A DNA stretch of 64,000 nucleotides from assembly GCA_003193925.1 (NCBI GenBank), contig PSPG01000002.1:41258-105257 (forward strand). The letters are read 5' to 3'. Shown here in pieces: positions 1-27,343 of the stretch. The notes beneath the pieces are model-generated. The model did not search any database. It saw only the letters and a program-made list of their open reading frames with translations, and was not told where the DNA came from. The position numbers and the translations under genes were made by a program. The number at the start of each line of letters is the position of its first letter. Position 1 is the first letter of the stretch. The DNA comes from Candidatus Thalassarchaeum betae (GTDB taxonomy: Archaea; Thermoplasmatota; Poseidoniia; Poseidoniales; Thalassarchaeaceae).

Positions 1-805
1 CTCTCCTCCTCGCTGCTGCGGCGGCTTGGCCCCCCGTCTTGCGCGGTCCAGCCCTCCTGCGCTGGGCTCTGCGGACCCTCACGTCGTCGCTCGACTTGGC
101 CTTCTCCTCCTCTAGCAGATACAGGAGAGGCTCGGGGATCGGGTCTCCGGCGACGACGAGCGGATGGCTCCGGTAGCGGAAGAGCTTGATGTGCCGGTCG
201 ATGATTCGTCCCAAAGGCGCGCTCATCGTGATGTAGGTGGCAATCCAAGCGGGGAATATCCACATCACCCTGTCGTTGAACTCCCACATCGGCACCCAAG
301 GCAGGCTGACGAAGGCCACTCTGAAGGTCTCCACCTCACTGGCCATCCAACTGAAGATTGCGATGATGAAGACCATCGTGAACATCATCGGCCTCATCAT
401 CGCTGACTGCATGGCCATCTGCTCGGGCATCAGTTCCATCTGCAGCTTCTGCATCTTGTCCGCCCGGGCTGTGTCACGGGCCATCTGGGCCTCTCTGAGT
501 TGCTTACTGACCTGGCGTTGGCGGTGACTGAAATGAGCCTGTCTCAAGGGGTCCATGAAGAAGGACCGGATGATAGTGTTCACAACCATGATGCTGGAGC
601 CGACGATGAACACCGTCGGAACGAAGTACAACGAGTGGAACGGGAGCAGGGGTATGAGGACGTAACCCGCCCCGTCGGCCAATGCTATCCGAAGGCTTGG
701 GTTGAGCATCAGCACCACCATCATCACCAGGAGGAAGAGCATTGGAAGCATCATCGAGGACATGGCCTCGGCCTGCGAGTCGCTGCTGGTGCCCGCTGAT
801 GCCAT
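1..805 (-). CDS. DUF106 / EMC3-TMCO1 (Oxa1 superfamily) membrane protein, 3' end outside window
   Basis: Translated by hand (absent from ORF track): MASAGTSSDSQAEAMSSMMLPMLFLLVMMVVLMLNP...; TM segments, then Met/Gln-rich coiled coil KQLREAQMARDTARADKMQKLQMELMPEQMAMQSAMMRPMMFTMVFIIAIFSWM, then LPW and FPAWIATY; no stop before position 1. Confidence 0.8.
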   Translation of the reverse strand, partial: MASAGTSSDSQAEAMSSMMLPMLFLLVMMVVLMLNPSLRIALADGAGYVLIPLLPFHSLYFVPTVFIVGSSIMVVNTIIRSFFMDPLRQAHFSHRQRQVSKQLREAQMARDTARADKMQKLQMELMPEQMAMQSAMMRPMMFTMVFIIAIFSWMASEVETFRVAFVSLPWVPMWEFNDRVMWIFPAWIATYITMSAPLGRIIDRHIKLFRYRSHPLVVAGDPIPEPLLYLLEEEKAKSSDDVRVRRAQRRRAGPRKTGGQAAAAARRR

Positions 806-874
806 GTACCCTCGCTCCGCCAGAACAGGATGAACGCTTCGGTGGACGCCAAAGGCGTCCAATCGGTTCCGCAA

Positions 875-3466
875 TCAGAGGGAATAACTGCAGACGACGC
901 ATACCGATGCGCCTATTTCCGCCTCGGAACCGCATATTGGGCAGACCTCGCCCCCAGGCGCACCAGCCGCTTCCTCCTCCTCTGGCTCTTCTTCCTGCGG
1001 CTCTGGCTCCCCTTCCTGAGACTCTTCTTCCTGAGGCTCTTCTCCCTCCGGCTCTGGCTCCTCGGGTTCTGACTCTGGCTCTGGCTGTCTGGGAAGTTCG
1101 GGGACCCTCTCCGGGTCCACCCACTCTGGAAGGTTAGGCTCCTCGTCGACCTCTGCGCCGAAGGTGGCGCCGTGGAAGTCCTGAGCGTCAGAGACCTTGT
1201 ACTCCGACTCGGGGTCCCCTTGGATCTCGTATGTCACCTCTATCCTCTCTCCCCGCTCAATCCTGCCAATCTTCCACTCGGTATGGGTCCCCTCGGGGGC
1301 TGCCTCCTTCTTCATGCGCACATCACGCTCGCCGTCAATCGAAGAGCGCACCGTGGAGTCCTCGATCGAGAAGGTCCCGGGAACCACGTCATGTAGAGCG
1401 AGGTCGTCGAGGGCGCTGTCGGAGTTGTTCTCGAACATCAGCAGGACCTCGTACCTGCCGGCGTTGCCAGCTGGAAAGACCTCCTTTCCAGTGCTCACGT
1501 TGCGCCGGCGGTGGACGACTCGCATCTGAGGGGGTCTCTCTACGACCCTGGTCGCCACAGGACCAAACTTCTCGGAACCGAAGTCGGCCCTGATGGGGGC
1601 TGCTAGGAGCTCGTTCGCCGGAGAGGGGTCTGGTGCATGCAGCGGATACCTGATCACCATGGTCTTGCCGGGCTGGAGGCCGAGTGGGGCAGAAGTGCCT
1701 ACGGTGATTCTCAGTCCGTGGCCTTCGCTGTCTGGGGAGATCATCCTCTCTTCCAGCTGAATCCCGTTGATCACCTCTATCAGGTACTGCTCCTCATTGA
1801 GGTCGGTACCCCCGATCTCGATGCTCACGTCGTCCTGCGAAGGGGGGTCGAAGATCCCCGGGACGTCATCCAGCAGACGCATGACGTTAATCGGGGCCGA
1901 GCCGTTGTTCTCAATCGATATCGTAGCCTCGATATCAGAAGGCACGAACGACTTGATCCTAGATTTATCATACTGCTTGAGCAGTACTGCGTCCAGCACG
2001 GTCAGTTTCTGCTCCTTCAAGTCGATCGATCCCCTTGACTCGACGGCCACACGAGGCAGGATGGAGGACCTGAACTCGTGGGTGAAACTGGGGCTGTCGG
2101 CCTCCACCCTCTTCTCCATGGAACTCCAGCTCCCCTCGGGAGGGACGTCCTGACGGAGGTCAGAGATGTCCAGTATCGGATTTTCTCTGCCGGACTGCCA
2201 GACAGTCACCCCCGACAGTGTAACCACGAAGGAGGATCTGTTCTCGAACACGGACTTGCAGTGCCAGATCCCGGGTCTGTCATCCTCGACCTTGTCGACT
2301 CTCATCATGTGTAGGGTGGAGCCGGAGACGCGGTCGAAGTCGGCTCTCGAGACCGTCGCCTCAGCAGTGTAATTCGCGGAAGCGACGCCGGCGGAAATCT
2401 TGTCGACCCCCCCGGTGGTGACTCTGGGCGAGAGGGCGAGCACCCTGCTCTCACCGACGTTGAGCCTGCCGATCTCCCAGGAGATATATGAATCCCCGAC
2501 GCTGTACTCAGGGCCGTCGGGAATGTGGAAGTTGTCCGGGAAGGTCCTGCTGACCTCGACCTCCAAGAGAGGGCCGGGCGAGATGTTCTCGACCTCGAGC
2601 TGCAACTCAATCTCCTGTTGCTCCTCGGAGAAGACCAGTGACAGACTATCCTCCTGGTCCCTCTCCGGGTTGGTGTCGATGGATTCCTTCAGGACCAGCA
2701 TCCGAGGACCGCTGGCGGAGTATGGGATTACCGTGTCCTCGGTGGCCTCGAGCTCCCTCACGGATATCGAGCGCCCTCCGATGTCTGTGGCGCTAGTTGA
2801 TGAGAGTAGTACCTCTATGTCCCATGCCCTGTGCTTCTTGCTTGCGTTTCGCAGTATCAGTTCGCCTTCTATGGTCTGCCGCCTGATCGAGCCGTCGGGA
2901 TTCAGGGTGGAGGTCTCCACTTCGCTCAGGGTGGCGTGTAGCTTGTCGCCCGGGATCGCGTCCACCTCCCTGGCGGACCTCAGGTGGGGAGAGGAAGCCG
3001 GAGCCACTACCGCCTTGGATAGGGCGTCGGCAATGGGGGAGTCCTCTTCAGAGTCCAAGGAGTCCACGGAGGACTCGGGTTCAGCCCAGTCTATCTCGTC
3101 GGCCTCCTGGCTATCTCCCGCACCGCTCAGCGCGGCTAGCGAGTCCTGTAGAGAAGCAGGCTCCTCAGACTCCTCATCCGGGACATCCAAGCCGGGGGGA
3201 GGAGGTGGCGGTGAGTCGGGTCCGGATGGAGTGGGGGAGGGGGCGTCGAAGCCGGGAGGAGGAGAAGGGGCCTCCCCAGGCTCCTCATCAGGCTCACCCG
3301 AAATCTCCCTGTCCTCGAGTTCCATCAAGCCCGGTGGCGGAGGAGGTGGCGAGGGCGCTTGTTCGCCCTCCGAATCGTCATCCTCCTCTTCCTCGAAACC
3401 GGGTGGGGGGGGCGGAGGAGGAGGGAGGGGGAACCCTGAAGGAGGGGGAGGGGGCTCTTCTGACAT
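875..3466 (-). CDS. Large acidic protein: N-terminal poly-Pro region, beta-sandwich core (mu-homology-like / DUF11-like), Glu-Pro linker, C-terminal zinc ribbon
   Basis: ORF 875..3598, likely start MSEEPPPPP at 3466; four PPPG[FL] motifs; C-terminal CPICG...CVVC; no signal peptide or TM seen. Confidence 0.75.
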   Translation of the reverse strand: MSEEPPPPPSGFPLPPPPPPPPGFEEEEDDDSEGEQAPSPPPPPPGLMELEDREISGEPDEEPGEAPSPPPGFDAPSPTPSGPDSPPPPPPGLDVPDEESEEPASLQDSLAALSGAGDSQEADEIDWAEPESSVDSLDSEEDSPIADALSKAVVAPASSPHLRSAREVDAIPGDKLHATLSEVETSTLNPDGSIRRQTIEGELILRNASKKHRAWDIEVLLSSTSATDIGGRSISVRELEATEDTVIPYSASGPRMLVLKESIDTNPERDQEDSLSLVFSEEQQEIELQLEVENISPGPLLEVEVSRTFPDNFHIPDGPEYSVGDSYISWEIGRLNVGESRVLALSPRVTTGGVDKISAGVASANYTAEATVSRADFDRVSGSTLHMMRVDKVEDDRPGIWHCKSVFENRSSFVVTLSGVTVWQSGRENPILDISDLRQDVPPEGSWSSMEKRVEADSPSFTHEFRSSILPRVAVESRGSIDLKEQKLTVLDAVLLKQYDKSRIKSFVPSDIEATISIENNGSAPINVMRLLDDVPGIFDPPSQDDVSIEIGGTDLNEEQYLIEVINGIQLEERMISPDSEGHGLRITVGTSAPLGLQPGKTMVIRYPLHAPDPSPANELLAAPIRADFGSEKFGPVATRVVERPPQMRVVHRRRNVSTGKEVFPAGNAGRYEVLLMFENNSDSALDDLALHDVVPGTFSIEDSTVRSSIDGERDVRMKKEAAPEGTHTEWKIGRIERGERIEVTYEIQGDPESEYKVSDAQDFHGATFGAEVDEEPNLPEWVDPERVPELPRQPEPESEPEEPEPEGEEPQEEESQEGEPEPQEEEPEEEEAAGAPGGEVCPICGSEAEIGASVCVVCSYSL

Positions 3467-3590
3467 GGCGCTAACACCCCGATGGGTGGTCGCGGACGTG
3501 GCTTGGATTGGTATAACCATTACTTGTCGGACACTGAGCCGATGGCAGGGCGTCACGAATGGTTGAAGTTCTCTCGCCCTTGGCGAGAGC

Positions 3591-4433
3591 GTGAGCAATC
3601 AGGACGGGACAGCGCCTCCAGTGCTGTTCGTCGTCGGTACCGCAGGTGCTGGAAAGAGTTCCTTGGTGACTGCCTTCCAACGGTGGGCGCGATTCCTCGA
3701 GGTCGATGTACTCGCGATCAACCTCGACCCCGGGGCCGAGAGGGTGCACTACGACGCGGAGTACGACGTCAGGGACCTCGTTTCGCTGTCTGACGTCATG
3801 GTCGAGTACGACCTAGGCCCTAACGGCGCTCAAATCCTGGCCGCTGACCTGGTGGCGGCACAGGCGACCGAAGTCTTCGACGAGATCGAGGGGCTGTCGT
3901 GCGATCTGCTGATTGTCGACACGCCGGGCCAGGTGGAACTGTTCGCCTTCAGAGAGGCCTCCAACCACCTCGTCAGCGTGATAGGCCAAGGCAGGGCCTG
4001 CCTAATCTTCCTGTTCGACCCGATGCTCTCACGGACTCCGAGCGGCTTCGTGGCGCAGATGCTCCTTTCGGCAATCGTGCACTTCAGGCTGGGGCTCCCT
4101 ACAGCGAACTTCCTCTCCAAGTCGGACTTATTGGAGCCGGAGACCCTCGAGAAGGTGATGGAGTGGGGCGACAACCTGGAGGCGCTGGAGGCCGCGTTGT
4201 ACGAGGAATCGGCCCAGCAAGCCCTCGACAGCCAGTCCGGCAGCCAAAGGGCCGAGTTCGCCATAGGCCAGCTCAGGATGATGCAGCACGCGTCGATACA
4301 GCCTGGCTTGGTGCCCCTTTCCAGTGAGGAGGAGGAGGGACTTGCCGACGTGCTGACCTTCGCACAGTCAGTATTCGGCGGAATGGCTGATGCCAGAGAC
4401 GGATTTGCAGGGGACATAGAGCATGAGAGGTAG
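3591..4433 (+). CDS. GPN-loop GTPase
   Basis: GTAGAGKS P-loop, NLDPG, LGPNGA (GPN loop), DTPGQVELF, SKSD. Confidence 0.93.
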   Translation: MSNQDGTAPPVLFVVGTAGAGKSSLVTAFQRWARFLEVDVLAINLDPGAERVHYDAEYDVRDLVSLSDVMVEYDLGPNGAQILAADLVAAQATEVFDEIEGLSCDLLIVDTPGQVELFAFREASNHLVSVIGQGRACLIFLFDPMLSRTPSGFVAQMLLSAIVHFRLGLPTANFLSKSDLLEPETLEKVMEWGDNLEALEAALYEESAQQALDSQSGSQRAEFAIGQLRMMQHASIQPGLVPLSSEEEEGLADVLTFAQSVFGGMADARDGFAGDIEHER

Positions 4434-6992: not shown

Positions 6993-7070
6993 GCTCGTGT
7001 AGTGTAGTTCGGTCCATCATGACGGACTCTCGATCCGTCGACCCGGGTTCAAATCCCGGCACGAGCACCA
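6993..7070 (+). tRNA. tRNA-Glu (CTC)
   Basis: Acceptor GCTCGTG/CACGAGC; anticodon arm ACGGA-CT-CTC-GA-TCCGT; T-loop GGTTCAAATCC; encoded CCA. Confidence 0.96.
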
Positions 7071-7125
7071 CTATTGTCTCTCATAACGGTCTTAAGCGGT
7101 CCTTCGTTGGCGTAGTAAGGTCTCG

Positions 7126-8178
7126 ATGCGCGTTGAGCACGATGTGAAGATGACCTTTGACGATGTTCTGATACGACCTAAGCGCAGTACGCTGGTTTCT
7201 AGATCGGATGTGACTCTGTCGAGGGACTTCAAGTTCCGCCATTCCGATGAGATCTGGAGCGGGGTGCCCATCGTGGCGGCCAACATGGACACCACCGGCC
7301 TGTTCTCGGTGGCCAAGGAGCTGCAGGAGCACGGCATGCTCACCTGCCTACAGAAATTCTACTCGACTCGCGAGTGCGCACGAGCGTGGGAAGACGGGGT
7401 GGACCCGGGCTTCGTCGCAGTCACATGCGGCTCCACGGACGAGAGCTTCGAGCTGCTGCAGCGCAAGATGGCGACCGATGACGGGATCAAGATGATCTGC
7501 GTAGACGTCGCCAATGGCTACCGCGAGGTGTTCGTCGAGTTCGTCAAGCGGGTTCGCGACAAGTTCCAGAGCAAGATTATCATCGCCGGCAACGTTGCCA
7601 CCAGGGAGATGACAGAGGCCCTCATCCTCGCCGGTGCGGACATAGTCAAAGTCGGCATAGGACCGGGCTCGGTCTGCACGACCTGCAAAGTGGCAGGCGT
7701 GGGCTACCCTCAGCTCTCGGCCATCGCGGAGTGCGCTGACGCAGCGCATGGCCTGCTGGGTCACGTGATGGCTGACGGTGGATGCTCCTCACCGGGCGAT
7801 GTCGCGAAGGCCTTCGGCGCGGGTGCGGACTTCGTCATGCTGGGCGGCATGTTCGCGGGACACGACGAGTCCGGTGGGGAGCTCATCAAGGGCGATAACG
7901 GCAGGATGTACAAGTCGTTCTACGGAATGTCATCGAGCAAGGCGATGGAGTCGCATTACGGTGAGGTCGCCGGGCACAGGGCCCCCGAGGGCAAGGAGGT
8001 CAGGGTGCCTTACAGAGGGGAGCTCGGCCTCACCGTGCAGTCCGTTCTTGGGGGAGTCAGGTCGGCCTGCTCGTATGTTGGTGCTCGCAGGATCAAGGAC
8101 CTTCCCAAGTGCACCACCTTCATCCGGGTGTCGCAGACCAGCAACGAGGTCTACGAGCGCTTCAACGTCGGGGAATGA
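7126..8178 (+). CDS. guaC: GMP reductase
   Basis: [56 protein letters not shown]; no CBS domain. Confidence 0.92.
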
Positions 8179-8182
8179 CCTC

Positions 8183-8662
8183 TCAGATGTCGAAGATGAC
8201 CTGTGCCATCCACCCAGGACCCTCGAAGGCCGGTATGTCGGGCTCTATCCCGGGCACCATTTCCCCGGCGGCTACCTCGCGCAGTGCCAGCTGGTGCAGG
8301 GTCACCGCCTTGACCTCGACCTCGCGCTCGACGAGATCCGAGTCGACCCAGGAGGCCTGTGCTTCGATCCTACCTCCTCCGTCTATCCTGATTGCCGCCT
8401 CAACGAGCCACTGGCCTTCGGCGGAGCCGCGATAGAGGACCTCCTCAAGCCACAGTACCATCCCGCGCTCGAGGTCCCCCCCGGGCGCTTGGACGACCCA
8501 TTCGCCGGTCGAGCGAGGCAATGTGGCGAGTGCGGCGGCGCCGTTCTCAGACAGCTGGATTGATTGGAGGCCCATGGTCGCCTCGAGGATCGCATCTTGA
8601 GCCGCCATCGAGAATGCACGCAGGCCTATGTCGGCCGTAGTAGGCAGAATCCACCAAGACAC
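8183..8662 (-). CDS. Archease (RtcB activator)
   Basis: TADIG near N-terminus, EVKAVTLHQL, C-terminal AQVIFDI; likely GTG start at 8662. Confidence 0.85.
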   Translation of the reverse strand: MSWWILPTTADIGLRAFSMAAQDAILEATMGLQSIQLSENGAAALATLPRSTGEWVVQAPGGDLERGMVLWLEEVLYRGSAEGQWLVEAAIRIDGGGRIEAQASWVDSDLVEREVEVKAVTLHQLALREVAAGEMVPGIEPDIPAFEGPGWMAQVIFDI

Positions 8663-8709
8663 GGTCTCACCGACCCGTCCGAGCGGTCCATCGTGCAAGA
8701 ATGCAGGGG

Positions 8710-11700
8710 TCAGTCGAAGTCGCTGCACAGCTCGCCCTGACTGGGAAAGCTGACTGCCGACTTGGGGTTGGTGTTCCACTTGTTCTCGCACTTGTTGAGA
8801 TACCCGTCGCCGTCCGAGTCGATGTTGGCGTCGGCCGGGTCAAACGGATCGAAGCCGAAGTAGTACTCCCATCCTGACCACATGCCGTCGTCGTCCTGGT
8901 CCTGGTGATACACCTCCGAGCCATCGAACCACTGATCGCCGTCTGTATCCGGGTCGACGGGATTCGTCCCGTTCTCGAACTCCTCGTAGTTGGTGAAGTT
9001 CTCGAGGTCGTCGTAGAACCTCCTGCCGTTGTCTGTGGTCGGGTCGATGTGGCACTCGGAGTTCTGCGGGTTGTCCCATCCGGGGCAGTAGCGATACAAC
9101 AGGTGCGTCCGATTGAGCCCGTCGCCGTCGAAGTCCTCCTGGCCGTCGTCGATGCCATCGACGTCCGAGTCGAACATCTTCGGGTCCATCGGACCGCGGG
9201 CTCCGACGGCGCTCAGGGTGTTGTTGTCGACCAGCCCCAGGCTGAGTGCTATCTCCGAGTAGTAGACCTCCCAGCCGTCGGGAAGCTTGTCCCCGTCGGT
9301 GTCGTCGTCCACTGGGTTGGTGTCCCAGCGGTCAGGGGCCTCGAGAGAGTTCATGAGTGTGTCATTGTCGATGTCGAAGGCCGAGTCGGGAAGCGAGCCC
9401 CATGCCGGGTTGAGGGCCCATCGTCCGCTGGCGGGTACGGTGAAACCTGACAGGTTCATCTCGTGCAGGAAGTACTTCGGATCCATGTCGCCGTCGCCGT
9501 CTCGGTCCCCGGAGGTCGAGAAGCCCGCGAGGTAACTGCTCCAGACCCAGCCACCGGGCCCGAGTCCACACTCGAGCATCGAATCACAGCCCGGCGGTAG
9601 CCAGTCGGTGACGCTGATCCAGAGGCTGTGGCTCTTCGTGTTGTGCTGGACGGAGAAGACCTGCATCTCCCAGCCATCGGGCTGACCGTCGCCGTCAGTG
9701 TCGTTGTTCAGTGGGTTGGTGGCACCCTGCCAAGGCCGTGGGATGTTGAGTACCTCGCTACCGTCGAACAGGCCGTCGTCGTCACTGTCGGGGTTGTTGG
9801 CGTGGGTGATGTACTGGTCGAGGCCGTCGATGACCTCCTCCCCGTCGGACAGGCCGTCGAGGTCGGTATCGTGCGAAGAGGCATTGGTGAAGTACACCGA
9901 ACCGTTCCATACGAAGCCGTCAACGGCCTCGGTGAAGTCCTCGAGACCGTCACTGTCGGTGTCCCTGTCAGAGGCATTGGTGAAAGTTTCGTAGTACTCG
10001 ACAGCGTCGGACAAGCCGTCCCTGTCGGTGTCGTAGGCACCCGGATCGCTCCTTACTAAGACATCCCTCACACCCTGATCGACGATGCGAATGGTCCAGC
10101 CGATCACCTCGATGCCGTCGATGAGTCCGTCTCCGTCGGTATCGGCGACCAGCGGGTCGGTCGAGCGGCCGTCGACGAAGCCATCGCCGTCCCGGTCCCT
10201 CGCATTGTACTCGTCGAGGTTGGTGAAGCGCTCGTGCTCCTCGACGACTACGGCGAGGTCCTGTAGACGGCTCGTGACCTCCTGGCCGATCTCGACGTTG
10301 ATGTGGTAGATCCAGCCGGCGATCAGGGTCTTGATCGGGATGTTGACGTACTGGCTCTCCTGGACAGTCCTGACCCAGAGGATGGTGCTGTTGACCTGCA
10401 CGTAGTCGCCGATCTCGACCGAGATGGCATGGATGGTGGTCACGCCAACGAGCCCTGTGTATCGCACGCCCCCGTCGCCGTCGGCGTCGTAACCGTCGAA
10501 GTCGGGGTCGTCGTCAGCGTTGCTGCCGTCGTTCGGATGGATTCCGCTGAGGTGCTCCCACCCGTCGGGCATGCCGTCACCGTCGGTGTCGAACTCCAGC
10601 GGATTGGTGAAGTTCTCCGGACCCCAGGTGTAGGCGACCTCGTACTCCTCGACGTTGTTCAGCCCGTCCCCGTCGGGGTCGCCGTAGGCGTCGGTGGCGT
10701 TGGCGGGGTTAAGGAAGCGGTCGCCCGAGGAATCGAGGCTGTAGCAGTACTCGAAGCCGTCGGGCATGCCGTCGCCGTCGGTGTCCCAGTCGCCCGGACC
10801 GTTGAGGCGGCCGTCGTTGTCCATGTCCTGCTCGAACCAGGTCCGGTCGCCGTGGCCGCTCATGTACTCCGTGTACGGCGCTTGCAGGGTCAAGGTGCCG
10901 AAGACGGGGACGCCGCAGTGGACGCCCAGTTGGATCTGCCCGTAGGCGATCTCGTACCTGTCTGCAATGAGGTCGCCGTCGCTGTCCTCCTCGAGCGGGT
11001 TGGTGTCGTACCTCTCCTCGACGTAATTGCGCAGACTGTCGGGTTCGGGCTGCTCGAGGTCCAGCAGGGCATCGCACGAGTGGCCGAACTGGCTGCCCAT
11101 CTCCTCCCACTCGCTCGAGCCGATGTCCTGCTCGATCTGCCCCTGGACCTCGGGAGTCAACAGGTAGCAGTCCCAGTTGCCGTCGAGTGGGTCGAGTAGG
11201 GTGATTGACCCCGAAGGGGTCTCGATAACGAAGGTGTACTCGGACTCCCAGCGGTCATTCAGACCGTCGCCGTCGGTGTCCCTGAGATTGGGATTGGTGC
11301 CGAGGAGCATCTCCTCGGTGTTGGTCAGGCCGTCCCGGTCCGGGTCTCCGAAGGGCCCGTTGTCCGGATTGGGGAAGGTCTCGTTCTGCTCCCCAGTCTC
11401 CTCCTCGTTGTCGGGGGAGTTGTGGGATATCTCGCTGAGGTCGGGCTCGCCGTTGTCCAGGGGATCCAGCCCATTGGCTATCTCCCACCCGTCGTCGAGC
11501 CCGTCGCCATCGGTGTCGGCCTCCCTCCAGTCGGTTCCGTAGAGCGTCTGCTCCATCCTGTCCGGCAGTCCGTCGCCGTCGAAGTCCTCCCCGCCGACGT
11601 GGGTGTCGTCGCTGGATACGATGTCCCCCGCTGCTGGTTCGAAGCCGCCGGAAGTGGTGGTGGACAGGCCGGCGTCGATGATGGTGTAGAAGCCGGCCAG

Positions 11701-11754
11701 ACACAGCGTCGCTGTGATTGCAAGCACCGCATACTGGTTGTGATTCAGAGCCAT
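8710..11754 (-). CDS. Membrane-anchored or secreted acidic protein with many DxDGDG calcium-binding (TSP3-like) repeats
   Basis: N-terminal hydrophobic helix; recurrent DTDGDGxxDGWE...NP units throughout. Confidence 0.85.
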   Translation of the reverse strand: MALNHNQYAVLAITATLCLAGFYTIIDAGLSTTTSGGFEPAAGDIVSSDDTHVGGEDFDGDGLPDRMEQTLYGTDWREADTDGDGLDDGWEIANGLDPLDNGEPDLSEISHNSPDNEEETGEQNETFPNPDNGPFGDPDRDGLTNTEEMLLGTNPNLRDTDGDGLNDRWESEYTFVIETPSGSITLLDPLDGNWDCYLLTPEVQGQIEQDIGSSEWEEMGSQFGHSCDALLDLEQPEPDSLRNYVEERYDTNPLEEDSDGDLIADRYEIAYGQIQLGVHCGVPVFGTLTLQAPYTEYMSGHGDRTWFEQDMDNDGRLNGPGDWDTDGDGMPDGFEYCYSLDSSGDRFLNPANATDAYGDPDGDGLNNVEEYEVAYTWGPENFTNPLEFDTDGDGMPDGWEHLSGIHPNDGSNADDDPDFDGYDADGDGGVRYTGLVGVTTIHAISVEIGDYVQVNSTILWVRTVQESQYVNIPIKTLIAGWIYHINVEIGQEVTSRLQDLAVVVEEHERFTNLDEYNARDRDGDGFVDGRSTDPLVADTDGDGLIDGIEVIGWTIRIVDQGVRDVLVRSDPGAYDTDRDGLSDAVEYYETFTNASDRDTDSDGLEDFTEAVDGFVWNGSVYFTNASSHDTDLDGLSDGEEVIDGLDQYITHANNPDSDDDGLFDGSEVLNIPRPWQGATNPLNNDTDGDGQPDGWEMQVFSVQHNTKSHSLWISVTDWLPPGCDSMLECGLGPGGWVWSSYLAGFSTSGDRDGDGDMDPKYFLHEMNLSGFTVPASGRWALNPAWGSLPDSAFDIDNDTLMNSLEAPDRWDTNPVDDDTDGDKLPDGWEVYYSEIALSLGLVDNNTLSAVGARGPMDPKMFDSDVDGIDDGQEDFDGDGLNRTHLLYRYCPGWDNPQNSECHIDPTTDNGRRFYDDLENFTNYEEFENGTNPVDPDTDGDQWFDGSEVYHQDQDDDGMWSGWEYYFGFDPFDPADANIDSDGDGYLNKCENKWNTNPKSAVSFPSQGELCSDFD

Positions 11755-11836
11755 GGAGGCACATCCGGCCCCAATGGGGCCGTCCGCTTGAATTTGGGTC
11801 CGGATATAATGTTTCACGGCAACCGAGCACGGGCAA

Positions 11837-14628: not shown

Positions 14629-17497
14629 TACCTAGCAACGAGCGCGCTGCATCGAGCGCGGCCGGGATGCCATCGGGCTTCGAGCCGCCGCCTTGGGCGA
14701 TGGTGGGCCTGCCGCCGCCCGCTCCCCCGATGTGACCTGCTATCGCATTGAGGATCTCGACGGCGTTGTGGCGCTCTGCTGCGACACTGCCCTCGGTGGA
14801 GGCGACTATGAGGGTCCCTCCGCCCTCTCTGCTGCCTAGCACTGCGAGGGTCGGCGTGGATGCGTCGCGAGTCAGCTCTCCGAGCATCGCCATCATCTGC
14901 TTGGCATCCCCTCCGGATTCCATCACCACGTACCTGACGCCCTCCTTCTCGACCGCAGCATCACCGCCGCCATCGGTCCGCAATCTCACGATCTCGGCCT
15001 CCAGAGATTCGATGCGCTTCTGCTGCGACTTCCACTCGCCGAAGAAGCGCGAGACGGTGCGCGGCAGGTCGTCCGGCTGCACCCCGAGGATCTCTGAGGC
15101 GTCACCGAGAAGGCGCTCCTGGCGCCGGGTGTGCTCGCGTGCCGTCCCCCCTGCCACGATCTGCAGACGCTCCACTCCGTCTTGGACTTGACTCGACCTG
15201 ATGATGAGTAACTCCCCGATTTCGCCGGCTTCGTCATGGTGCGTGCCCCCGCATGCCTGGGTGTCGTAGTCGCCGATCTTGATGATGCGAATCTGGCTGT
15301 GCTTGGGCGGTCCGCCCTGATAGATGTCGAAGCCGAAGGTGGCGTCGGCGTCCGCTCTATCCATCACCAGCTTCTCGATCCCAGGATTCGCCTCGACGAT
15401 CTCGTTCGCCCTGTCCTCGATGGTGTCGAGGACCTCCCTGGTGAGTCTAGAGTGGTGGGTGATGTCCAGCCTCGCGTAGCGTGCGCCCTTGTTCGAGCCG
15501 GCCTGCCAAACATGGGGGCCGAGGACCTCTCTGGCGGAGCCGCCGACGATATGGACCGCCGTGTGGTGGTCCATCAGCTGCTTGCGGCGCTCCCAGTCGA
15601 CAACCCCCCTGGCTGAGCCCCCCTCAAGTGGGGCGTCGGTGAGATGCAGGATTACACCGTTCTCGACCCGGGTGTCGACCACGTTGGCGGCGGCGCCGTT
15701 CTGAGCCAGCATGCCTTGGTCACCGAGTTGCCCGCCCCCCTCGGGATAGAACAGGGTCCGATCTAGAACCACGGCGTGCGTAGGTACTCCGAAGACCTCG
15801 CTAGAGAGGTTCAGAGATTCTACCTCCTCGCTTGACAGAGGGGCGCAGTGCAGCACTTCGGCAGTGAACTCGGTGGCGCTGGTGTCGGCGTAGTAGTCAG
15901 GTGAGGTAGCGGGCAGCGCTGCCACCTCGAAGACGCTGTCCATGGCCTTCGCCTTGGCCGCCACCTTGGTCATCTGCGCGTTGCGGGCAGCCATGTCGGC
16001 TGCGAACCCGACGCGCACGGACAGGCCCTCCCAGCCGAGCTCGTGCGCTATCGAGACGACCATGTCGGGATTGAGGCCTCTCTCCTCAGCGAGGCGAAAC
16101 AGGGTCTCGTCAGGAGCCATGGCGACGTCCTTGGGAAGCGACTTGAGGGCGGTACGCACCGCTGCCTCACCTTTCCTCAGCATCTCGTGGTAGCGCACCT
16201 CCTCGAGCTCGAGTATCCTCAGTACGCCCTCGCGCGACTGCACGAACGAGCCCATGTCGAGATGGGTGTCCATGTGGTGCGCGCCCAAGTCAGCGAGACT
16301 GATGGACGCGCCGAGGTCGTCCTTCATGCGGCAGACGCGGCGGGCCAGCATGCGAGCCAGGTAGCCGGCCTTGGAATTGCTCGGCACTAGGCCGTCGCCC
16401 AGCATGTTGCACAGAGCGTGCATGTGATCTGGTATGGCGTAGATCGAGGACAGCGGCTCAGTCACTTGTTTCAACTCGTCAACGGAGAGATTGATACCGG
16501 TCTCGTAGAGTCGTTCGACCAACTTGTCGTACAGTGCTTCGACATCGGTTCCGACATCGATGTTGAGTATCCCGGCGAGCCTCGAGAGCTCGCCCAGCAG
16601 CGAGTCGATGCCGACCGCCATCCCGAGGGAGGATGCCATCGAGTCGAAGCCGCTCAGCTCCTTGAGCCAAGCCACCGACTCGGGGTAGATTGCCTCGTAG
16701 ATGGTAGGGGTACCGGCGGCGGCCCAGCAGAATCTCTCGAGGCCGTAGCCGGTGTCGATGATCTGCAGGTCCATCTCCCTGTATCGCAGGCCCTTGATCT
16801 CGATGTCGCCGTCATCGGCCTCCTCGAGGTTCATGAAGACGAGCGTGGCGAGCTCCAGCCCGCCCACTATGACCTCCAATGCTGGTCCGGCGTTGCCGCC
16901 TCCAGACCAGGGGCTCTCGACGTAGGTGAGTTCCTTGGGATCGATGCCCAATGAATCGACGAGCATCTCGTCGCAATAGCGAACGCACTGGTCGATCCAG
17001 TAGACGACATCGTTGTCCCCAGGCCTGTTGAAAGCGTGGTGCGCCATCATCTCGAATGCCGAGAGATGCCTTCCAGAACGGCCTACTGCGGCCAGGTCTG
17101 TCAGCCTGATGCACGGCTGACTGATACCTAGGGGGTTGGCCGGCGGCGGAACTTGGCCGCTGGTGACATGAGGCTGGAAGTCAGCTATGCTGGCGATGGT
17201 CAGGTGGATGTCGTCGCGCCATCTGGCGATGATCGGGTACGGCTCCACTCTCGTGTGACCGTGCTTGTCGAAGAAATCGAGGAAAGCTTCCCTCATGGCG
17301 TCCTTCAGGGCTTTCCCAAGCATCGGAAAGCCCTCGATGACCGGGTTGCCGATGAAAGTGTACGGGTCCTCGGTCGAATCACCGCACGTAGTGCGGCTCT
17401 CGTCCCTTGTCCAGAAGCGGACTCCGGTCACCCGGCAAGTCTTGCAGATGTGTCCCGACTCCTCCCAGAAGGGGATGTGAATCTCGCCGAACGCCAT
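14621..17497 (-). CDS. alaS: Alanine--tRNA ligase (archaeal type)
   Basis: ARWRDD, IASIADFQP, QPCIR, FEMMAHHAFN, DTGYGLER; editing motifs HTAVH and CGGTH; C-Ala GGGRPTIAQGGG. Confidence 0.97.
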   Translation of the reverse strand: MAFGEIHIPFWEESGHICKTCRVTGVRFWTRDESRTTCGDSTEDPYTFIGNPVIEGFPMLGKALKDAMREAFLDFFDKHGHTRVEPYPIIARWRDDIHLTIASIADFQPHVTSGQVPPPANPLGISQPCIRLTDLAAVGRSGRHLSAFEMMAHHAFNRPGDNDVVYWIDQCVRYCDEMLVDSLGIDPKELTYVESPWSGGGNAGPALEVIVGGLELATLVFMNLEEADDGDIEIKGLRYREMDLQIIDTGYGLERFCWAAAGTPTIYEAIYPESVAWLKELSGFDSMASSLGMAVGIDSLLGELSRLAGILNIDVGTDVEALYDKLVERLYETGINLSVDELKQVTEPLSSIYAIPDHMHALCNMLGDGLVPSNSKAGYLARMLARRVCRMKDDLGASISLADLGAHHMDTHLDMGSFVQSREGVLRILELEEVRYHEMLRKGEAAVRTALKSLPKDVAMAPDETLFRLAEERGLNPDMVVSIAHELGWEGLSVRVGFAADMAARNAQMTKVAAKAKAMDSVFEVAALPATSPDYYADTSATEFTAEVLHCAPLSSEEVESLNLSSEVFGVPTHAVVLDRTLFYPEGGGQLGDQGMLAQNGAAANVVDTRVENGVILHLTDAPLEGGSARGVVDWERRKQLMDHHTAVHIVGGSAREVLGPHVWQAGSNKGARYARLDITHHSRLTREVLDTIEDRANEIVEANPGIEKLVMDRADADATFGFDIYQGGPPKHSQIRIIKIGDYDTQACGGTHHDEAGEIGELLIIRSSQVQDGVERLQIVAGGTAREHTRRQERLLGDASEILGVQPDDLPRTVSRFFGEWKSQQKRIESLEAEIVRLRTDGGGDAAVEKEGVRYVVMESGGDAKQMMAMLGELTRDASTPTLAVLGSREGGGTLIVASTEGSVAAERHNAVEILNAIAGHIGGAGGGRPTIAQGGGSKPDGIPAALDAARSLLGIS

Positions 17498-17602
17498 GCT
17501 ACCGCGCCTTACCTGCGCTCGAGCCATCGGACAGGCGGTCTTGAAGGCAATTGTACGAGAGACGCCCGTTGCGTTGAAAGCGAGAGCGCAACAGGGTTGC
17601 CC

Positions 17603-19075
17603 ATGACGGCTGAGTGGAGGGATTTCCTAGAGTCTGATGGCCCAGGAAGGATGCGTATCTCGAGGCATGGGGACATGCTGACTGACGCCATACTGATCGC
17701 TGATGAGCGGCACATGTCCGAGCACTCGGACGACCGCTCGCCCGGGCAACTGGTCAACACCGCTGCCCTGCCCGGAATCGTCGGCGAGGCCTGGGGAATG
17801 GCGGACTGGCACTTCGGGTACGGTTTTCCTATTGGCGGAGTCGTCGCCACGGACATCGAGGCAGGCGAGCAGGGGGGCGCCATCTCTCCGGGAGGTGTCG
17901 GCTTCGACATCAACTGCGGAGTCAGGCTCTGCGCCACCGAGATGAGCATCTCCGACCTCGATCCCAAGCGACTCGCAGCGAGGCTATCGCGCTCGATCCC
18001 AGCGGGAGCCACCTCCAAGGGCGGCGTCAGCCTCGGCGATGGCGAGATGGAGGCCGTCCTGTCCGAAGGCGCCGGCGCTGCCGTCGAACTGGGTTGGGGC
18101 GAGGCCCGGGACCTCGATGCCATCGAATCGAACGGCCGCCTCGACAGCGAGGAGAGGGCTGTGAGCGAGCGAGCCATGAAACGCGGCTCCACCGCACTGG
18201 GAACGCTCGGCTCTGGCAACCACTTCCTAGAGCTCCAGGTCGTAGAACGCGTCGTCGACGATGCTGCTGCGGCCGCCTACGGTCTGAGGGAGGGACAGGT
18301 CACAGCGATGATCCACACCGGCTCGAGGGGGCTAGGACATCAGGTCTGCTCCGAGCACGTCGCTGCCATCGAGTCGAAGTATCGCAAGGCAGGGAGCGCT
18401 TGGCATTCACCCGAGTGGGGAATCACGCTAGCAGACCGGCAACTCGCAGCCGCGCCGATCCACAGCCCCGCAGGGGCTGCTTACCTCGATGCGATGAGCG
18501 CGGCTGGCAACTACGCATTCGCCAACCGCTCGGCACTGACCCAGCGTCTGCGCAACGTGCTGCGCGAGCAATACGGCCAAGACGGCGATCTCGAGGTGGT
18601 CTACGACGTCTGTCACAACATCGCCAAGATCGAAGATCACATGGTGCACGGGGTGAGTTGCAGGTGCTGCGTCCACCGCAAGGGAGCCACTCGGGCACTG
18701 GGTGGGGACCATCCCGAGCTCGCCTCTAGGTTCTCCGGGATCGGCCAGCCGGTCCTCGTGCCGGGGGACATGGGAACCGCTTCGTGGGTCCTAGCGGGTC
18801 CTGCGAGGGGGGCCAACGACGCCTTCGCCTCGTCGTGCCACGGCGCGGGACGCCGCTTGTCTCGCACGGCTGCTCGCAAGAGAATCGACTCGGTCTCGCT
18901 CAGGGAGACGCTGGAGTCAAAGGGCATCCACGTCCATGCCAAGACCCCCAACGTGCTCTCTGAGGAGGCTCCGGACGCCTACAAGGACGTGGACGAGGTG
19001 GTCCGCCTCACTGCGGAGGCCGGGCTGGCGAGACCGGTCGCACGTCTGAGGCCGATAGCCGTGATCAAGGGCTAG
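17603..19075 (+). CDS. rtcB: RNA-splicing ligase RtcB
   Basis: DWHFGYGFPIGG, GGVGFDINCGVR, GSGNHFLE, HTGSRG, HNIAK, HRKGAT, HGAGR, EEAPDAYKD, terminal KG. Confidence 0.95.
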   Translation: MTAEWRDFLESDGPGRMRISRHGDMLTDAILIADERHMSEHSDDRSPGQLVNTAALPGIVGEAWGMADWHFGYGFPIGGVVATDIEAGEQGGAISPGGVGFDINCGVRLCATEMSISDLDPKRLAARLSRSIPAGATSKGGVSLGDGEMEAVLSEGAGAAVELGWGEARDLDAIESNGRLDSEERAVSERAMKRGSTALGTLGSGNHFLELQVVERVVDDAAAAAYGLREGQVTAMIHTGSRGLGHQVCSEHVAAIESKYRKAGSAWHSPEWGITLADRQLAAAPIHSPAGAAYLDAMSAAGNYAFANRSALTQRLRNVLREQYGQDGDLEVVYDVCHNIAKIEDHMVHGVSCRCCVHRKGATRALGGDHPELASRFSGIGQPVLVPGDMGTASWVLAGPARGANDAFASSCHGAGRRLSRTAARKRIDSVSLRETLESKGIHVHAKTPNVLSEEAPDAYKDVDEVVRLTAEAGLARPVARLRPIAVIKG

Positions 19076-20538: not shown

Positions 20539-23500
20539 TCACTCGCCGCCGTCTTCCTCGCCTGCCTCGTCGTCGCCGTCCCACGAGTCGTCTTCGTAGT
20601 AGCCCCCTTCGTCATCGTCGTAGTAGAAGTCCTCGCTGTCGCGGCCTCGCATCATGAACATCGCGATGCCTAGGACAGCGAGTAACAAGACCCCTCCGAT
20701 CAGCAACATCTGCGAGCTCTCGCCTCCCTCGTCCTCGGTTGGCGGAGGCTGCACGTTGATCCCGGTGATAGGCTGGTAGGGGTTGTCGAAGTCACCGTTG
20801 ACGATCAGGTACAGGTTGGGCTGTCCCGGCTGCCACGACTCCCACCGGAACTCGGCGTGGACGCTCGAGCTCTCGGCAGGCAGTAACAGCATGATATCGC
20901 CATTAGTCGCCGTCGAGAGTGACATCCTCCACTGGCCGTCGACCAGCTCGTAGAGGCCGACTTGGAGTTCTCCTTCCCTCTTCCCTTGGTTCTCCCAGAA
21001 TGTCTCGATGGTCAGGATTTCTCCCTGCAGCGGCGTCTGGGTCGGGTTGATGACAGCGCGCGTGTACTGGCCGAGGAACTCCATGATCCTCATGGTGACC
21101 TGCCTAGGGGCGACTTCGCTGGCGGCTCCGACGATCTCGTTGCCGGACTTGTCGGTGGAAGTCACCCAGAACCAGATGTAGTCCCCAGACTCCACCCTCA
21201 TGCCATTCAGCGGATTGAGGTCGAGGACGGATTGGTAGACGTCGTTGGTGTCACCGTCGGAGATCATCACGAGCTCCCCTGTTACCTCCGTGCCGGGCAC
21301 CGGCGCGTTGTCCCTGACATAAACCCAAGCGACCTGCAGCGGGCCGTCGACCATGCCGATCTCGTCGACCATGGTCACGGTCACGGTCACGTCGTCCAGC
21401 ATATCGGAGTCGAGGATCGTCAGTGACGAGTCCGGGTACTCAGCCATGTTGAACAGAACCTGCGGTGACTTGCTGTCCACGACCACCGAGGCGTCGCTGT
21501 TCACACCCGAAGAGCCCGCCCCAGGCACGTTCAGCACGGTGGTCGTCACTACCATCTCCGGGTTCAGCGGCACTCTGGCAGGCAGAACCATCGATCCCAT
21601 GAAGGTGCCATCTGGTTCTACATCGACCACGATGTCGATCTCCTGGGTTCCGTAGATCACCTCGATCTCGACTTGCAGATCGTCAGGGATCTCGCTCGCG
21701 ACGACTTGGGAGCCTGAGTAGTAGATAGTGCCCTCCATCAGGAATTCGTCACCCTGCCTAAGGTACAGTGTGTGCCCCACAGCTTCGATTTGAGGCGGAG
21801 TGAGGTCCTGCATCGAGTCCGGGACCGCCATGAAATTGTTGTCAAGATCCCAAGTCAGCTCGCCTATGTTGTTCTGGTAAGCCACGGTGCTCAGGTCATC
21901 CTCGATGCTGATGCTGGGCTTGCACCCCAACTGTCCTTCTGCCCACGGGTAATCCCATGAGAGCTTGAATCCGAGACTGAGCTGGGTTATCGCCGACGTC
22001 ACCTCGGCGGTCTGGGCGCTCAACGGGGAGACCATGCTGTCATCGGCGGTCCACAGGGTCCCCCTCGATGGGTCGTAGGTGAACTTGCCGAGGTTGGACG
22101 GACCGTCACCGCAGAGCATGATGGTGACGTTGTCCAGTGTGTGTATCCCGTTGAGCTCGTCGATCTGCATGGTGAAGGTGTGTGGGACCCCAGCGAGCAG
22201 GTAGCCGAGCTCGCGGTCGAGATCGAAACCAGTCGGGACGATGTTGGTGGGCTCGTCGGTGGCGATCACTACGGTGGACCAGGCGTTCTCGGCACCCGGA
22301 CCCCCCCCGGTACCTCCGTCCTGGTAGGAGTAACCTGCCCAGTCTGTGCCCTCGATGTACATGTGGACCATGCTGTTGAAGGGCAGTGCCGCGACGTCGA
22401 TGCCGACGAATTGCACCTGCTGCTGGCCCGTCATGCCAGAAGTCAGAGGCTGCTGCTGGGACAGGTACTCGTCCTCGTCAGCGATACCGTCCATGTTCAC
22501 GTCGTCGACGGTCTCGCGCCAGTAGCGCAGGGCGATGATCTCGCCTCGGGCCTCTGCCTCATCTATGGTGACGAACACCGTGAGGGGGTTCTGGGGCTCC
22601 CACACCTTGCCGTGCGCTGGCTGCAGGCCGATTGCGGTATTGACCTCTATCGGTCCGGCGGTCGGCGGGTTGGAATCGACCCTGATGATGACCTGCTGCG
22701 CGAGGCCGGTCACGTCCTCGGCCCCGGTGGACGAGCCGGAGGGGCCGACGGTGAGCATCATCGGAGAAAGCGTCAGCTCGGTGAGAGAGGCCGGCGGAGC
22801 GATTGTACCAGCGTATCCGCCTCCCTCTTCCGAGGCTAGGGCGAACAGGTTGCCAGACAGGTTCAGTCCGACTGAGTAGTCACCGGAGTCGGGTCGCCTG
22901 TCGGTCGAGTCCTGGAAGCGGACGGTTCCGGTGACGTTCACCTGACCGCCATCCATGATCGGGAACGGGTAGAACGGCGAGAACAGGTTGGACAGTAGTC
23001 TTCCGGACTCGTCCCGAACCTCGAACGAGTCGACCTGCAGATCGTTCTCGACCGCTTTGGCGCCGGACTGGCCGCTGAAGGACACAGCAGGCCACACAGT
23101 CTCCCCCGTCGAGTCGAATGCCTGGGCGACCCAGCGAATGCTGTCGACATCGTCCCAGTTCCAGCTGATATCGAACATCCAATGCACTGCCACGTCGGTC
23201 CAACCGTCGTTGTCCACGACGTTGTCGATGTAGCTCGACGTCTCGTCCAGCATAGCGGAGTTGCTTCCTGAGGGCTGGCTGAACAGCACGGGTACCGAGG
23301 AGTCCCAGTCGGCCATCGGGTCCTTGGTGACCTCGAACTCGAGTATCTCCCCGTCCGAGGCGGTTCCCCTCAGTGTGATCTTCACAATCTCGGAGTTGTC
23401 GTACAGGTGATGGTGCATGGTGGTGATCTCAACGAGCTCTCGGTCGGGGTACAACGTGTTGGGGACCTGGAAGTCTCGGTTGGTCATGATGTAGTCGTAG

Positions 23501-27264: not shown

Positions 27265-27343
27265 GTACCGCACGTCGGTTGCAAGTATTATGAATGAATT
27301 GGTCCTGTTCTACGAACAGCTGGCTCTGGGCTGGATTTCATCC

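Follow-up and report, generated by a model that had tools for sequence, protein, structure and literature searches.

Clathrin adaptors, COPI, and endocytic pioneer proteins read cargo and motifs through the mu-homology domain (MHD), and the finding of this domain in Asgard archaea has been taken as a sign that the ancestors of eukaryotes had an incipient trafficking machinery. Poseidoniales (Marine Group II) are among the most abundant planktonic archaea. Here, we analyze a gene at positions 875..3466, on the reverse strand, of a 64,000-nucleotide stretch of contig PSPG01000002.1 from Candidatus Thalassarchaeum betae, a member of this order (the whole stretch is referred to as the window), whose product carries a confidently predicted MHD.

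A passage of Eme et al. (2023; PMC10307638) reports Asgard homologues of the 'C-terminal domain of the mu subunit' as eukaryotic signature proteins, and describes the Asgard adaptor-type domains as not fused to each other and 'sparsely distributed'. The excerpted text of Köstlbacher et al. (2026; PMC12962969) likewise calls the Asgard adaptor homologues patchy, and a passage of Liu et al. (10.1101/2020.10.19.343400) mentions that C-terminal domains of adaptin and of COPI subunits occur in fusions. In the excerpted text of a 2026 preprint (10.64898/2026.10.28.762692), 88% of the catalogued coat and adaptor signature proteins fall into structural clusters spanning all four lineages, and most catalogued signature proteins share structural clusters with other prokaryotes; MHDs, Poseidoniales, and DUF11 are unmentioned in that excerpt. 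Our literature search found no report of an MHD-family protein in Thermoplasmatota. The initial annotation, a reading of the sequence alone, had placed an adaptin/delta-COP MHD-like domain at 2320..2950 in a 'non-Asgard' archaeal protein, which is correct insofar as this is a Poseidoniales protein, but the family is known in Asgard archaea as the mu C-terminal-domain homologues of that passage (PMC10307638). The family is therefore not new to archaea; as far as we could find, it is new outside Asgard.

Predicted MHD fold and domain architecture

An AlphaFold 2 model of the protein core (residues 165-790; 626 residues, 62 aligned sequences) is all-beta, with a predicted local distance difference test (pLDDT) score of 93.8 and a predicted template modeling (pTM) score of 0.77, and the MHD modeled alone reached a pLDDT of 97.2 and a pTM of 0.89. 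A Foldseek search with the MHD-only model returned 6bnt_A as its top match (E 1.9e-10; target-normalized template modeling score, 0.69). Within the core model, residues 7..321 superpose on residues 168..435 of mu2, model residue 321 being protein residue 485, and the orientation of the two subdomains is kept relative to solved MHDs (root-mean-square deviation of ∼3 Å over ∼220 residues). Because the structural alignments are sequential and span both subdomains, the predicted topology is the interleaved A-B-A arrangement. On the strength of these models, residues 171-485 are confidently predicted to be an MHD, in which subdomain B (the Pfam DUF11 match) is inserted into subdomain A. The subdomain boundaries, as well as the 42-residue length of the mu2 return segment, follow what we take to be the mu2 subdomain limits. 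The resulting features of the gene and its product are as follows:

875..3466 (-), MHD-family gene, whole; 863 amino acids, with the stop codon at 875-877 (from the open reading frame [ORF] list and translation)
2975..3466 (-), N-terminal disordered region, residues 1-164; 26% Pro and 25% Asp plus Glu, with five PP-x0-1-G-[F/L] motifs
2012..2956 (-), predicted MHD, residues 171-485, by structural match to mu2
2621..2956 (-), N-terminal part of MHD subdomain A, residues 171-282, by mu2 structural alignment and family-profile matches; holds the first sequence block of the initial annotation
2315..2620 (-), MHD subdomain B, residues 283-384; equals the Pfam DUF11 match and holds the second and third blocks
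2012..2314 (-), C-terminal return part of MHD subdomain A, residues 385-485; 101 residues with nine predicted strands
1514..1993 (-), third beta-sandwich, residues 492-651; resembles pilin and Sgo0707-N2 domains
1205..1507 (-), fourth beta-sandwich, residues 654-754; DUF11-like, with strands at core-model residues 493-586 and pLDDT >90
944..1204 (-), acidic Glu/Pro-rich linker, residues 755-841; pLDDT <50 at core-model residues ≥623
878..943 (-), C-terminal zinc ribbon CPICG-x10-CVVC, residues 842-863, from the sequence; the profile aligns to the zinc-ribbon segment of 9sfa_A (E 0.075)

The sequence strings quoted by the initial annotation are all present in the product, at residues 175-377 and within 2320..2950 (residues 173-382): KLHATLSEVETSTLNPDGSIRRQTIEGELILRN (the first block) at residues 175-207, IELQLEVEN at 286-294, EVEVSRTFP at 302-310, SYISWEIGRL at 326-335, and ANYTAEATVSRADF at 364-377. 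Its proposed comparison of a predicted structure with solved MHDs came out in its favor, in that the A-B-A two-sandwich unit superposes on them in the model. The third block had, however, been taken as the end of the domain, and this was not borne out, as the structural match to mu2 reaches residue 485 (window position 2012); the range 2320..2950 nearly coincides with the stretch (residues 173-383) onto which the match of the Asgard homologue P0148 to the Pfam family Adap_comp_sub maps, but it is not the full domain, which covers residues 171-485.

The sole Pfam match on the window protein is DUF11 (PF01345), which covers residues 283-380 (score, 34.3 bits; cut-off, 24.6; E 3.4e-08), and an NCBIfam scan of the protein gave a chance-level match alone (E 0.15). 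In many homologues, the fourth sandwich scores as DUF11 and, weakly and below the cut-off, as Alpha_adaptinC2 or AP3B1_C; the family profile matches the gamma-adaptin ear in this region at E 0.43. The last 73 residues of the protein are 34% Glu and 16% Pro. Conservation is about equal over all five structural segments, so that the four-domain core evidently evolves as a unit. A defence or phage origin was considered and dropped, with zero matches to PADLOC or PHROGs families.

Sequence links to MHDs and points against them

A search of a 5.8-billion-protein set returned 796 relatives of the window protein at E≤1e-3. The best 120 of these 796 are all at least 65% identical to it; nearly all carry DUF11 alone as a pre-computed Pfam family, and those with a name belong to Poseidoniales, Thalassarchaeaceae, 'Thermoplasmatota', or 'Euryarchaeota'. 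When the window core was compared exhaustively by phmmer with 1.84 billion representatives, there were 334 matches at E≤1e-3, including 60 at E≤1e-30, many of which span ∼600 residues (query positions ∼10-600) at 22-30% identity. One of them, the Asgard representative P0148, aligns over nearly its full length at 28% identity (E 3.4e-43). P0148 itself matches Adap_comp_sub (PF00928) with an E-value of 1.9e-10 over profile positions 12-236 of 259, which correspond to window residues 173-383 in alignment A1 (62 rows, made up of the window core and 61 homologues). As a sequence argument, this transitive chain from the window core through P0148 to PF00928 appears strong.

We scanned A1 with Pfam as a whole and homologue by homologue. 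At E≤0.01, DUF11 was found in 59 of 62 rows, including that of the window core, and Adap_comp_sub in 28, the window row not among them. The curated Adap_comp_sub cut-off (31.6 bits) was passed by seven of the 61 homologues, all among the Asgard-type representatives, namely P0148 (40.9 bits), P0211 (40.7), P0226 (39.6), P0163 (35.2), P0169 (34.9), P0197 (34.4), and P0246 (33.3). In P0147, P0148, P0153, and P0217, the match starts at profile positions 6-18 and ends at 209-236, and therefore covers both subdomains. Profile positions ∼120-240 fall on the subdomain B stretch in the homologues, and the return part of subdomain A (residues 385-485) lies outside every Pfam Adap_comp_sub match in them.

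A search of all 177,635 distinct PDB sequences with the A1 profile produced 30 matches at E≤10, of which the top 27 are all AP mu or delta-COP proteins (AP-3 mu, 0.0031; AP-2 mu, 0.0034; AP-4 mu, 0.012; delta-COP, 0.014; range for MHDs, 0.003-0.2). In the HMMER alignment, the first family block pairs with a mu2 segment, and the second and third pair with mu2 subdomain B up to 'SGL'. Moreover, the N-terminal strands of the family profile match AP-4 mu 161-217 and delta-COP, and its positions 147-251 pair with subdomain B in both mu2 and mu3. Judged by these profile comparisons, the motif resemblance to MHDs exceeds chance.

Several observations weigh against the MHD assignment or against a function read from it. 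Adap_comp_sub has no match at E≤10 on the window protein or in its genome, none of the nine Thermoplasmatota-type representatives (P0122-P0138 and P0149) matches it at E≤0.01, and a profile of 26 Thermoplasmatota-only sequences found no significant PDB MHD, with AP-4 mu the last of nine matches (E 2.9). As these direct sequence tests fail, the homology claim rests on the predicted structure and on the Asgard-mediated transitive chain. The structural statements all come from predicted models, in which the structure-based identity to MHDs is 11-15%, ∼90 of the 315 MHD residues have no mu2 counterpart, and the return segment has 101 residues, as opposed to 42 in mu2. In addition, Foldseek with the whole four-domain model puts integrin and adhesin immunoglobulin-like (Ig) arrays first and AP-2 mu at rank 44. 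Among what we take to be the tyrosine-pocket residues for YxxPhi motifs in mu2 (F174, D176, K203, W421, and R423), the first three align to H, T, and R (in a 1.5-bit HMMER domain alignment, carried to the window sequence by hand), and this weak alignment does not indicate a YxxPhi-type site. The gene context differs between the two Thermoplasmatota clades that have the gene and gives no functional lead. Lastly, the 91.8%-complete genome of the window has no Arf or Roadblock/LC7 match, nor a Clat_adaptor_s (sigma/mu longin) match at E≤0.1, although the latter null is weak because the search found nothing in the control genomes either. Since PF00928 does not match the protein itself, we class it as an MHD-fold homologue and not as a PF00928 member.

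Some of these points could also be explained by convergence, with a DUF11 sandwich inserted into another prokaryotic beta-sandwich to give the same topology with no ancestry shared with eukaryotic MHDs. The low structural identity, the failure of the Thermoplasmatota-only profile to find MHDs, the far larger return segment, and a subdomain B that is recognizably DUF11, a widespread prokaryotic domain, would all fit such an origin. However, the Adap_comp_sub matches of P0147, P0148, P0153, and P0217 link both subdomains rather than B alone, the N-terminal strands, too, have family-profile matches to AP-4 mu and delta-COP, seven Asgard homologues exceed the curated Pfam cut-off, and the subdomain orientation is preserved. 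We therefore regard convergence as unlikely.

Gene product, predicted location, and terminal regions

The gene lies in an ORF at 875..3598 (-), for which the ATG at 3466 is the favored start; homologues P0019 and P0041 share the MSE/D..PPPPP N terminus of the product from this ATG. The start is not certain, because the gene call of P0013 takes an upstream in-frame ATG at 3520. The G+C content of the window is ∼61%. A family hidden Markov model (HMM) matches the window gene over model positions 25-631 (E 3e-189) and finds it as a single copy in its own genome (1.48 Mb, 91.8% complete). Marine metatranscriptome contigs from four runs, at ≥95% identity, overlap the gene at 1075-1247, 1266-1416, 1307-1544, 2094-2351, and 3197-3408, which is not proof of transcription, given that DNA is possible in such libraries; gaps in this cover carry no meaning.

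In a hydropathy scan of the window protein, no 19-residue segment reaches 1.6, and the maximum of 1.49 lies inside the zinc ribbon; among 62 family members, only one has a hydrophobic N-terminal segment. The absence of a signal peptide and a transmembrane segment, which the initial annotation had put forward, was thus borne out, there was no sign of secretion, and the sequence makes a cytoplasmic location likely.

These data bear on the possibility that the window protein is an ordinary tandem DUF11/Ig-like cell-surface protein (an adhesin or an S-layer-associated protein), whose likeness to MHDs is that of generic beta-sandwiches. DUF11 is, after all, its only Pfam match, the family goes under the labels 'DUF11 domain-containing' or 'TIGR01451 repeat protein' in public and atlas records, the whole-core Foldseek list is headed by integrin legs and antigen I/II, and the third and fourth domains resemble pilin and DUF11 sandwiches. 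The initial annotation had named a DUF11/Ig fold as the main alternative, and it was right to the extent that subdomain B scores as Pfam DUF11 and that two more beta-sandwiches follow the MHD, but the predicted topology is the interleaved one of MHDs. Furthermore, only MHD proteins top the PDB list of the family profile, the protein and nearly all members examined have no secretion signal, a zinc ribbon is present in 110 of 114 close homologues, and generic DUF11 surface proteins of other Thermoplasmatota match the family model at best at E 4.9e-10 and over no more than ∼110 positions. A cell-surface role accordingly seems highly improbable to us.

The disordered N-terminal region contains PP-x0-1-G-[F/L] motifs at residues 8, 20, 43, 69, and 89, as compared with a mean of 0.13 in 1000 shuffles, none of which reached five. 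Of 105 close homologues with an N-region of ≥100 amino acids, 98 have two or more of these motifs (median, 4), and the 110 of 114 close homologues with a zinc ribbon were counted by CxxC...CxxC within the last 60 residues; repeats and ribbon are thus both conserved in close homologues. A complex prediction of the tail (residues 1-164) with the 626-residue core scored 0.01 against a mark of 0.32; having no controls, it is evidence neither way.

GYF domains are readers of PPG-hydrophobic motifs. The window's genome has no GYF_2 match and, for GYF, one match of 15.8 bits that is below the cut-off and has similar counterparts in E. coli controls. Profilin has no match in the genome, the control genomes being likewise empty, and actin has none either, with nine control genomes matched (six above the cut-off). 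Readers of the PPxG tail of the FH1/profilin type and of the GYF type were thus dropped as candidates.

Distribution and phylogeny of the family

Profile searches covered 401 Thermoplasmatota and 301 Asgard genomes. Full-length or near full-length family matches are present in 113 of the Thermoplasmatota genomes: the window's own genome, 32 of 36 others in its family, 54 of 58 in a sister family of the same order (two partial), 23 of 24 in one family of another class, and one genome each in three further families. A sister order of the same class (0/10 genomes) and another family (0/48) have no family match. In 28 other Thermoplasmatota genomes, we found local DUF11-type matches only (E 4.9e-10 to 1e-5; ≤∼110 model positions), inside large ORFs. 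Two of the three single-genome matches, G162:C90 (locus L005) and G190:C185, lie on short contigs of 5.0-5.5 Mb bins with 3-7% contamination, in families that are otherwise negative; these copies, whose scores are typical of the two positive clades, may be mis-binned contigs.

Among the Asgard genomes, 253 of 301 match the family model at E≤1e-30, a frequency that differs from the 'sparsely distributed' of the passage cited above (PMC10307638) and that makes the family far commoner than domain-level annotation suggests. Three Asgard genomes examined in full have three, three, and six family matches. A search for related loci with an alignment of 16 Asgard sequences yielded four loci. The survey of homologues proposed by the initial annotation thus found the family in most sampled Poseidoniales and Asgard genomes. 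Distant relatives with names belong to Promethearchaeota, Thorarchaeota (a HEAT-repeat fusion), Helarchaeota, Sigynarchaeota, and Lokiarchaeota, and in one search, 28 of 29 matches carry pre-computed PF00928 together with PF01345. ESM Atlas clusters are archaeal only (Thermoplasmatota, Promethearchaeota, and Thorarchaeota), each labeled DUF11. Pre-computed PF27408 (AF2028_C) appears on many relatives of the second Thermoplasmatota clade and on an atlas cluster, and is absent from our Pfam scans. Many second-clade and Asgard matches contain apparent in-frame stops; in the one case checked by coordinates (G030, locus L022; match at 7001-8782, ORF at 7004-9085), the model had overrun the terminal stop of the gene, and recoding was rejected for it.

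A quick maximum-likelihood tree (83 rows; LG+G4; support from the Shimodaira-Hasegawa-like approximate likelihood ratio test only; P0277 standing in for its cluster-mate P0236) places the sequences of the order in one clade (support 100) and the second Thermoplasmatota group in another (99). Both clades join, together with two unlabeled representatives (support 93, not starred), and this joint grouping adjoins an Asgard subclade with P0264 (Promethearchaeia). All 11 Asgard proteins that were named at tree-building lie across one branch (support 94), and P0264, named later, is on the Thermoplasmatota side. Because the tree is unrooted, an old archaeal gene with losses and a transfer between Asgard and Thermoplasmatota are not told apart.

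Gene neighborhood and candidate partners

The MHD-family gene is flanked by the following genes:

2..874 (-), EMC3/TMCO1-like (DUF106, Oxa1-type) membrane protein, downstream and cut by the window edge; Pfam EMC3_TMCO1, E 1.7e-17
3591..4433 (+), GPN-loop GTPase, divergent upstream neighbor; Pfam ATP_bind_1, E 4.8e-52

In seven of eight genomes of the order (window included), an EMC3/TMCO1-like gene lies at most two genes downstream of the MHD-family gene and in the same direction, and the divergent GPN-loop GTPase gene lies upstream in all seven genomes in which that side is visible. Cytidylate kinase and Cbf5/TruB genes come after the EMC3-like gene in the order; at loci L015, L019, and L025, as well as in the window, the MHD-family gene is directly upstream of a DUF106(EMC3-like)-cmk-truB/cbf5 array, similar in make-up to the end of the archaeal ribosomal-protein/secY gene cluster. 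Members of the second Thermoplasmatota clade have the gene flanked instead by NFACT and an unannotated gene of ∼382 amino acids at five of five loci (family f18). This latter gene, which has no Pfam match and encodes ∼320-386 amino acids, is always tail-to-tail with the MHD-family gene (L020:5845-6990, L022:5790-6938, L023:5786-6934, L024:5985-7004, L021:8863-10023, and L026:5985-6944). At one of four Asgard loci, a gene for a protein with a Gtr1/RagA-Arf-like GTPase domain is immediately downstream of the MHD-family gene; this is L030:8211-10484 (+) of Helarchaeota, on the same strand, with 757 amino acids and a C-terminal GTPase domain (E 2.2e-24). As the context in the second clade and at the four Asgard loci is unlike that of the order, we did not use it as evidence for a mechanism.

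The neighborhood is nevertheless what a further explanation would draw on, namely a eukaryote-like coat or adaptor machine in Poseidoniales that would count the window protein among its subunits and, together with GTPases and other adaptor-like subunits, would sort membrane cargo or bend membranes. The predicted MHD fold, a single-copy gene in most sampled genomes of the order, the adjoining insertase (7/8) and GPN-loop GTPase (7/7) genes, the HEAT or TPR solenoids fused to some Asgard paralogues, and the Helarchaeota paralogue directly upstream of the Gtr1/RagA-Arf-like protein would be in line with it. To our knowledge, however, GPN-loop GTPases do not belong to the trafficking GTPases, the DUF106-cmk-truB array consists of clustered housekeeping genes, whose synteny in a single order may reflect inheritance and not function, and the neighborhood is not kept in the second clade. 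The genome lacks matches to Arf, Roadblock/LC7, and, with the weakness noted above, Clat_adaptor_s; the coat/adaptor-like scaffold suggested in the initial annotation is a putative role, and we consider membership in such a machine very unlikely.

Elsewhere in the window, a 2244-amino-acid ORF at 20539..27273 (-) has DUF7151 and an InhA-like MAM domain, and its product is probably a surface protein, and a 1035-amino-acid ORF at 8710..11817 (-) has bacterial thrombospondin type-3 (TSP3_bac) calcium-binding repeats. Genes for archease (8183..8791, -) and the tRNA ligase RtcB (17153..19075, +) lie ∼8 kb apart; the RtcB ORF has ∼198 residues ahead of its Pfam match, possibly from an over-long start call.

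Interpretation and significance

Taken together, our analyses favor, with a probability of roughly 0.75, a cytoplasmic multi-domain beta-sandwich protein with an MHD as its first folded module, which would represent the Thermoplasmatota branch of a family shared with Asgard archaea and act as a motif-binding scaffold. The MHD would serve as a platform binding short peptide motifs or partner proteins, as it does in mu-adaptins, delta-COP, and muniscins, and the Pro-rich/acidic tail with its multivalent PPxG-hydrophobic motifs, along with the C-terminal zinc ribbon, would provide flexible docking arms. From this combination of platform and arms, we infer a stand-alone cytoplasmic scaffold or adaptor and not a subunit of an AP/COPI-like tetramer.

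A bolder version, which we advance as a doubtful proposal, is that the MHD, instead of being an innovation of Asgard archaea and eukaryotes, is an older archaeal cytoplasmic recognition module working without a coat, that the single-copy Poseidoniales protein is a membrane-proximal, multivalent sorting scaffold and a prokaryotic precursor of cargo adaptors, and that the MHDs of eukaryotic mu, delta-COP, and muniscins descend from such a stand-alone family. In that case, membrane proteins would be recognized by the MHD through short motifs, with partners recruited by the zinc ribbon and the PPxG[F/L] repeats, and the protein might act with the adjacent Oxa1/EMC3-type insertase.

If the predicted fold is correct, the 'eukaryotic signature' MHD would not be limited to Asgard archaea among prokaryotes. 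The occurrence of the family in most sampled Poseidoniales and in one other Thermoplasmatota family bears on the trafficking argument built on Asgard archaea, and the Poseidoniales protein is found in a small genome in which no adaptor, Arf, or longin component was detected; the MHD fold alone would thus be no sign of vesicle trafficking. The donor and the timing of the eukaryotic MHD would need to be re-examined, and the result raises the question of what MHDs bind in cells without endomembranes. For annotation, it relabels hundreds of 'DUF11 hypothetical proteins'.

Comparison with known systems

The closest known proteins are the Asgard proteins with Adap_comp_sub and DUF11, which share with the window protein (i) a ∼600-residue four-domain core that is alignable end to end (phmmer E-values to 1.8e-47), (ii) a subdomain B that scores as DUF11, and (iii) the lack of a signal peptide. 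They differ in copy number, with three to six matches per genome in the three genomes examined, whereas the window protein is single-copy and invisible to Pfam Adap_comp_sub. They also lack both the Pro-rich/acidic tail and the zinc ribbon, and have instead folded N-terminal domains of ∼100 amino acids (HEAT in several), C-terminal extensions of ∼95 amino acids, or neither. A conserved, folded-looking N-terminal domain of ∼100 amino acids, with no Pfam match, precedes the MHD in P0147, P0148, P0153, P0159, P0161, P0162, P0167, and P0217. In P0236 and P0277 of Thorarchaeota, an N-terminal alpha-solenoid is fused to the MHD core (HEAT_2 in P0236, E 8.5e-15); P0320 combines pre-computed TPR families with PF00928 in one protein, and P0170, P0177, P0179, P0186, and P0249 have N-terminal sequences that look HEAT-like by eye. 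By analogy, a solenoid and an MHD in one chain is reminiscent of the large and medium subunits of adaptors.

The mu subunits of AP-1 to AP-5 and delta-COP begin with a longin domain, in place of which the window protein has its 164-residue disordered Pro/acidic tail. It further adds two beta-sandwiches and a zinc ribbon after the MHD, and no partner subunit was found in its genome, where Clat_adaptor_s, but not Adaptin_N, was searched for. In comparison with the muniscins (FCHo1/2, SGIP1, and Syp1), it has no F-BAR or other membrane-binding N-terminal domain, and its MHD is not C-terminal; the Pfam muHD family gave one sub-threshold match only, in Asgard P0264 (16.9 bits against a cut-off of 25).

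Finally, DUF11/TIGR01451 surface proteins resemble the window protein at residues 283-380 (DUF11) and in the DUF11-like fourth domain of its homologues. They are, however, tandem arrays, whereas the window protein has no signal peptide, ends in a zinc ribbon, and carries its DUF11 unit as what is predicted to be the embedded subdomain B of an MHD.

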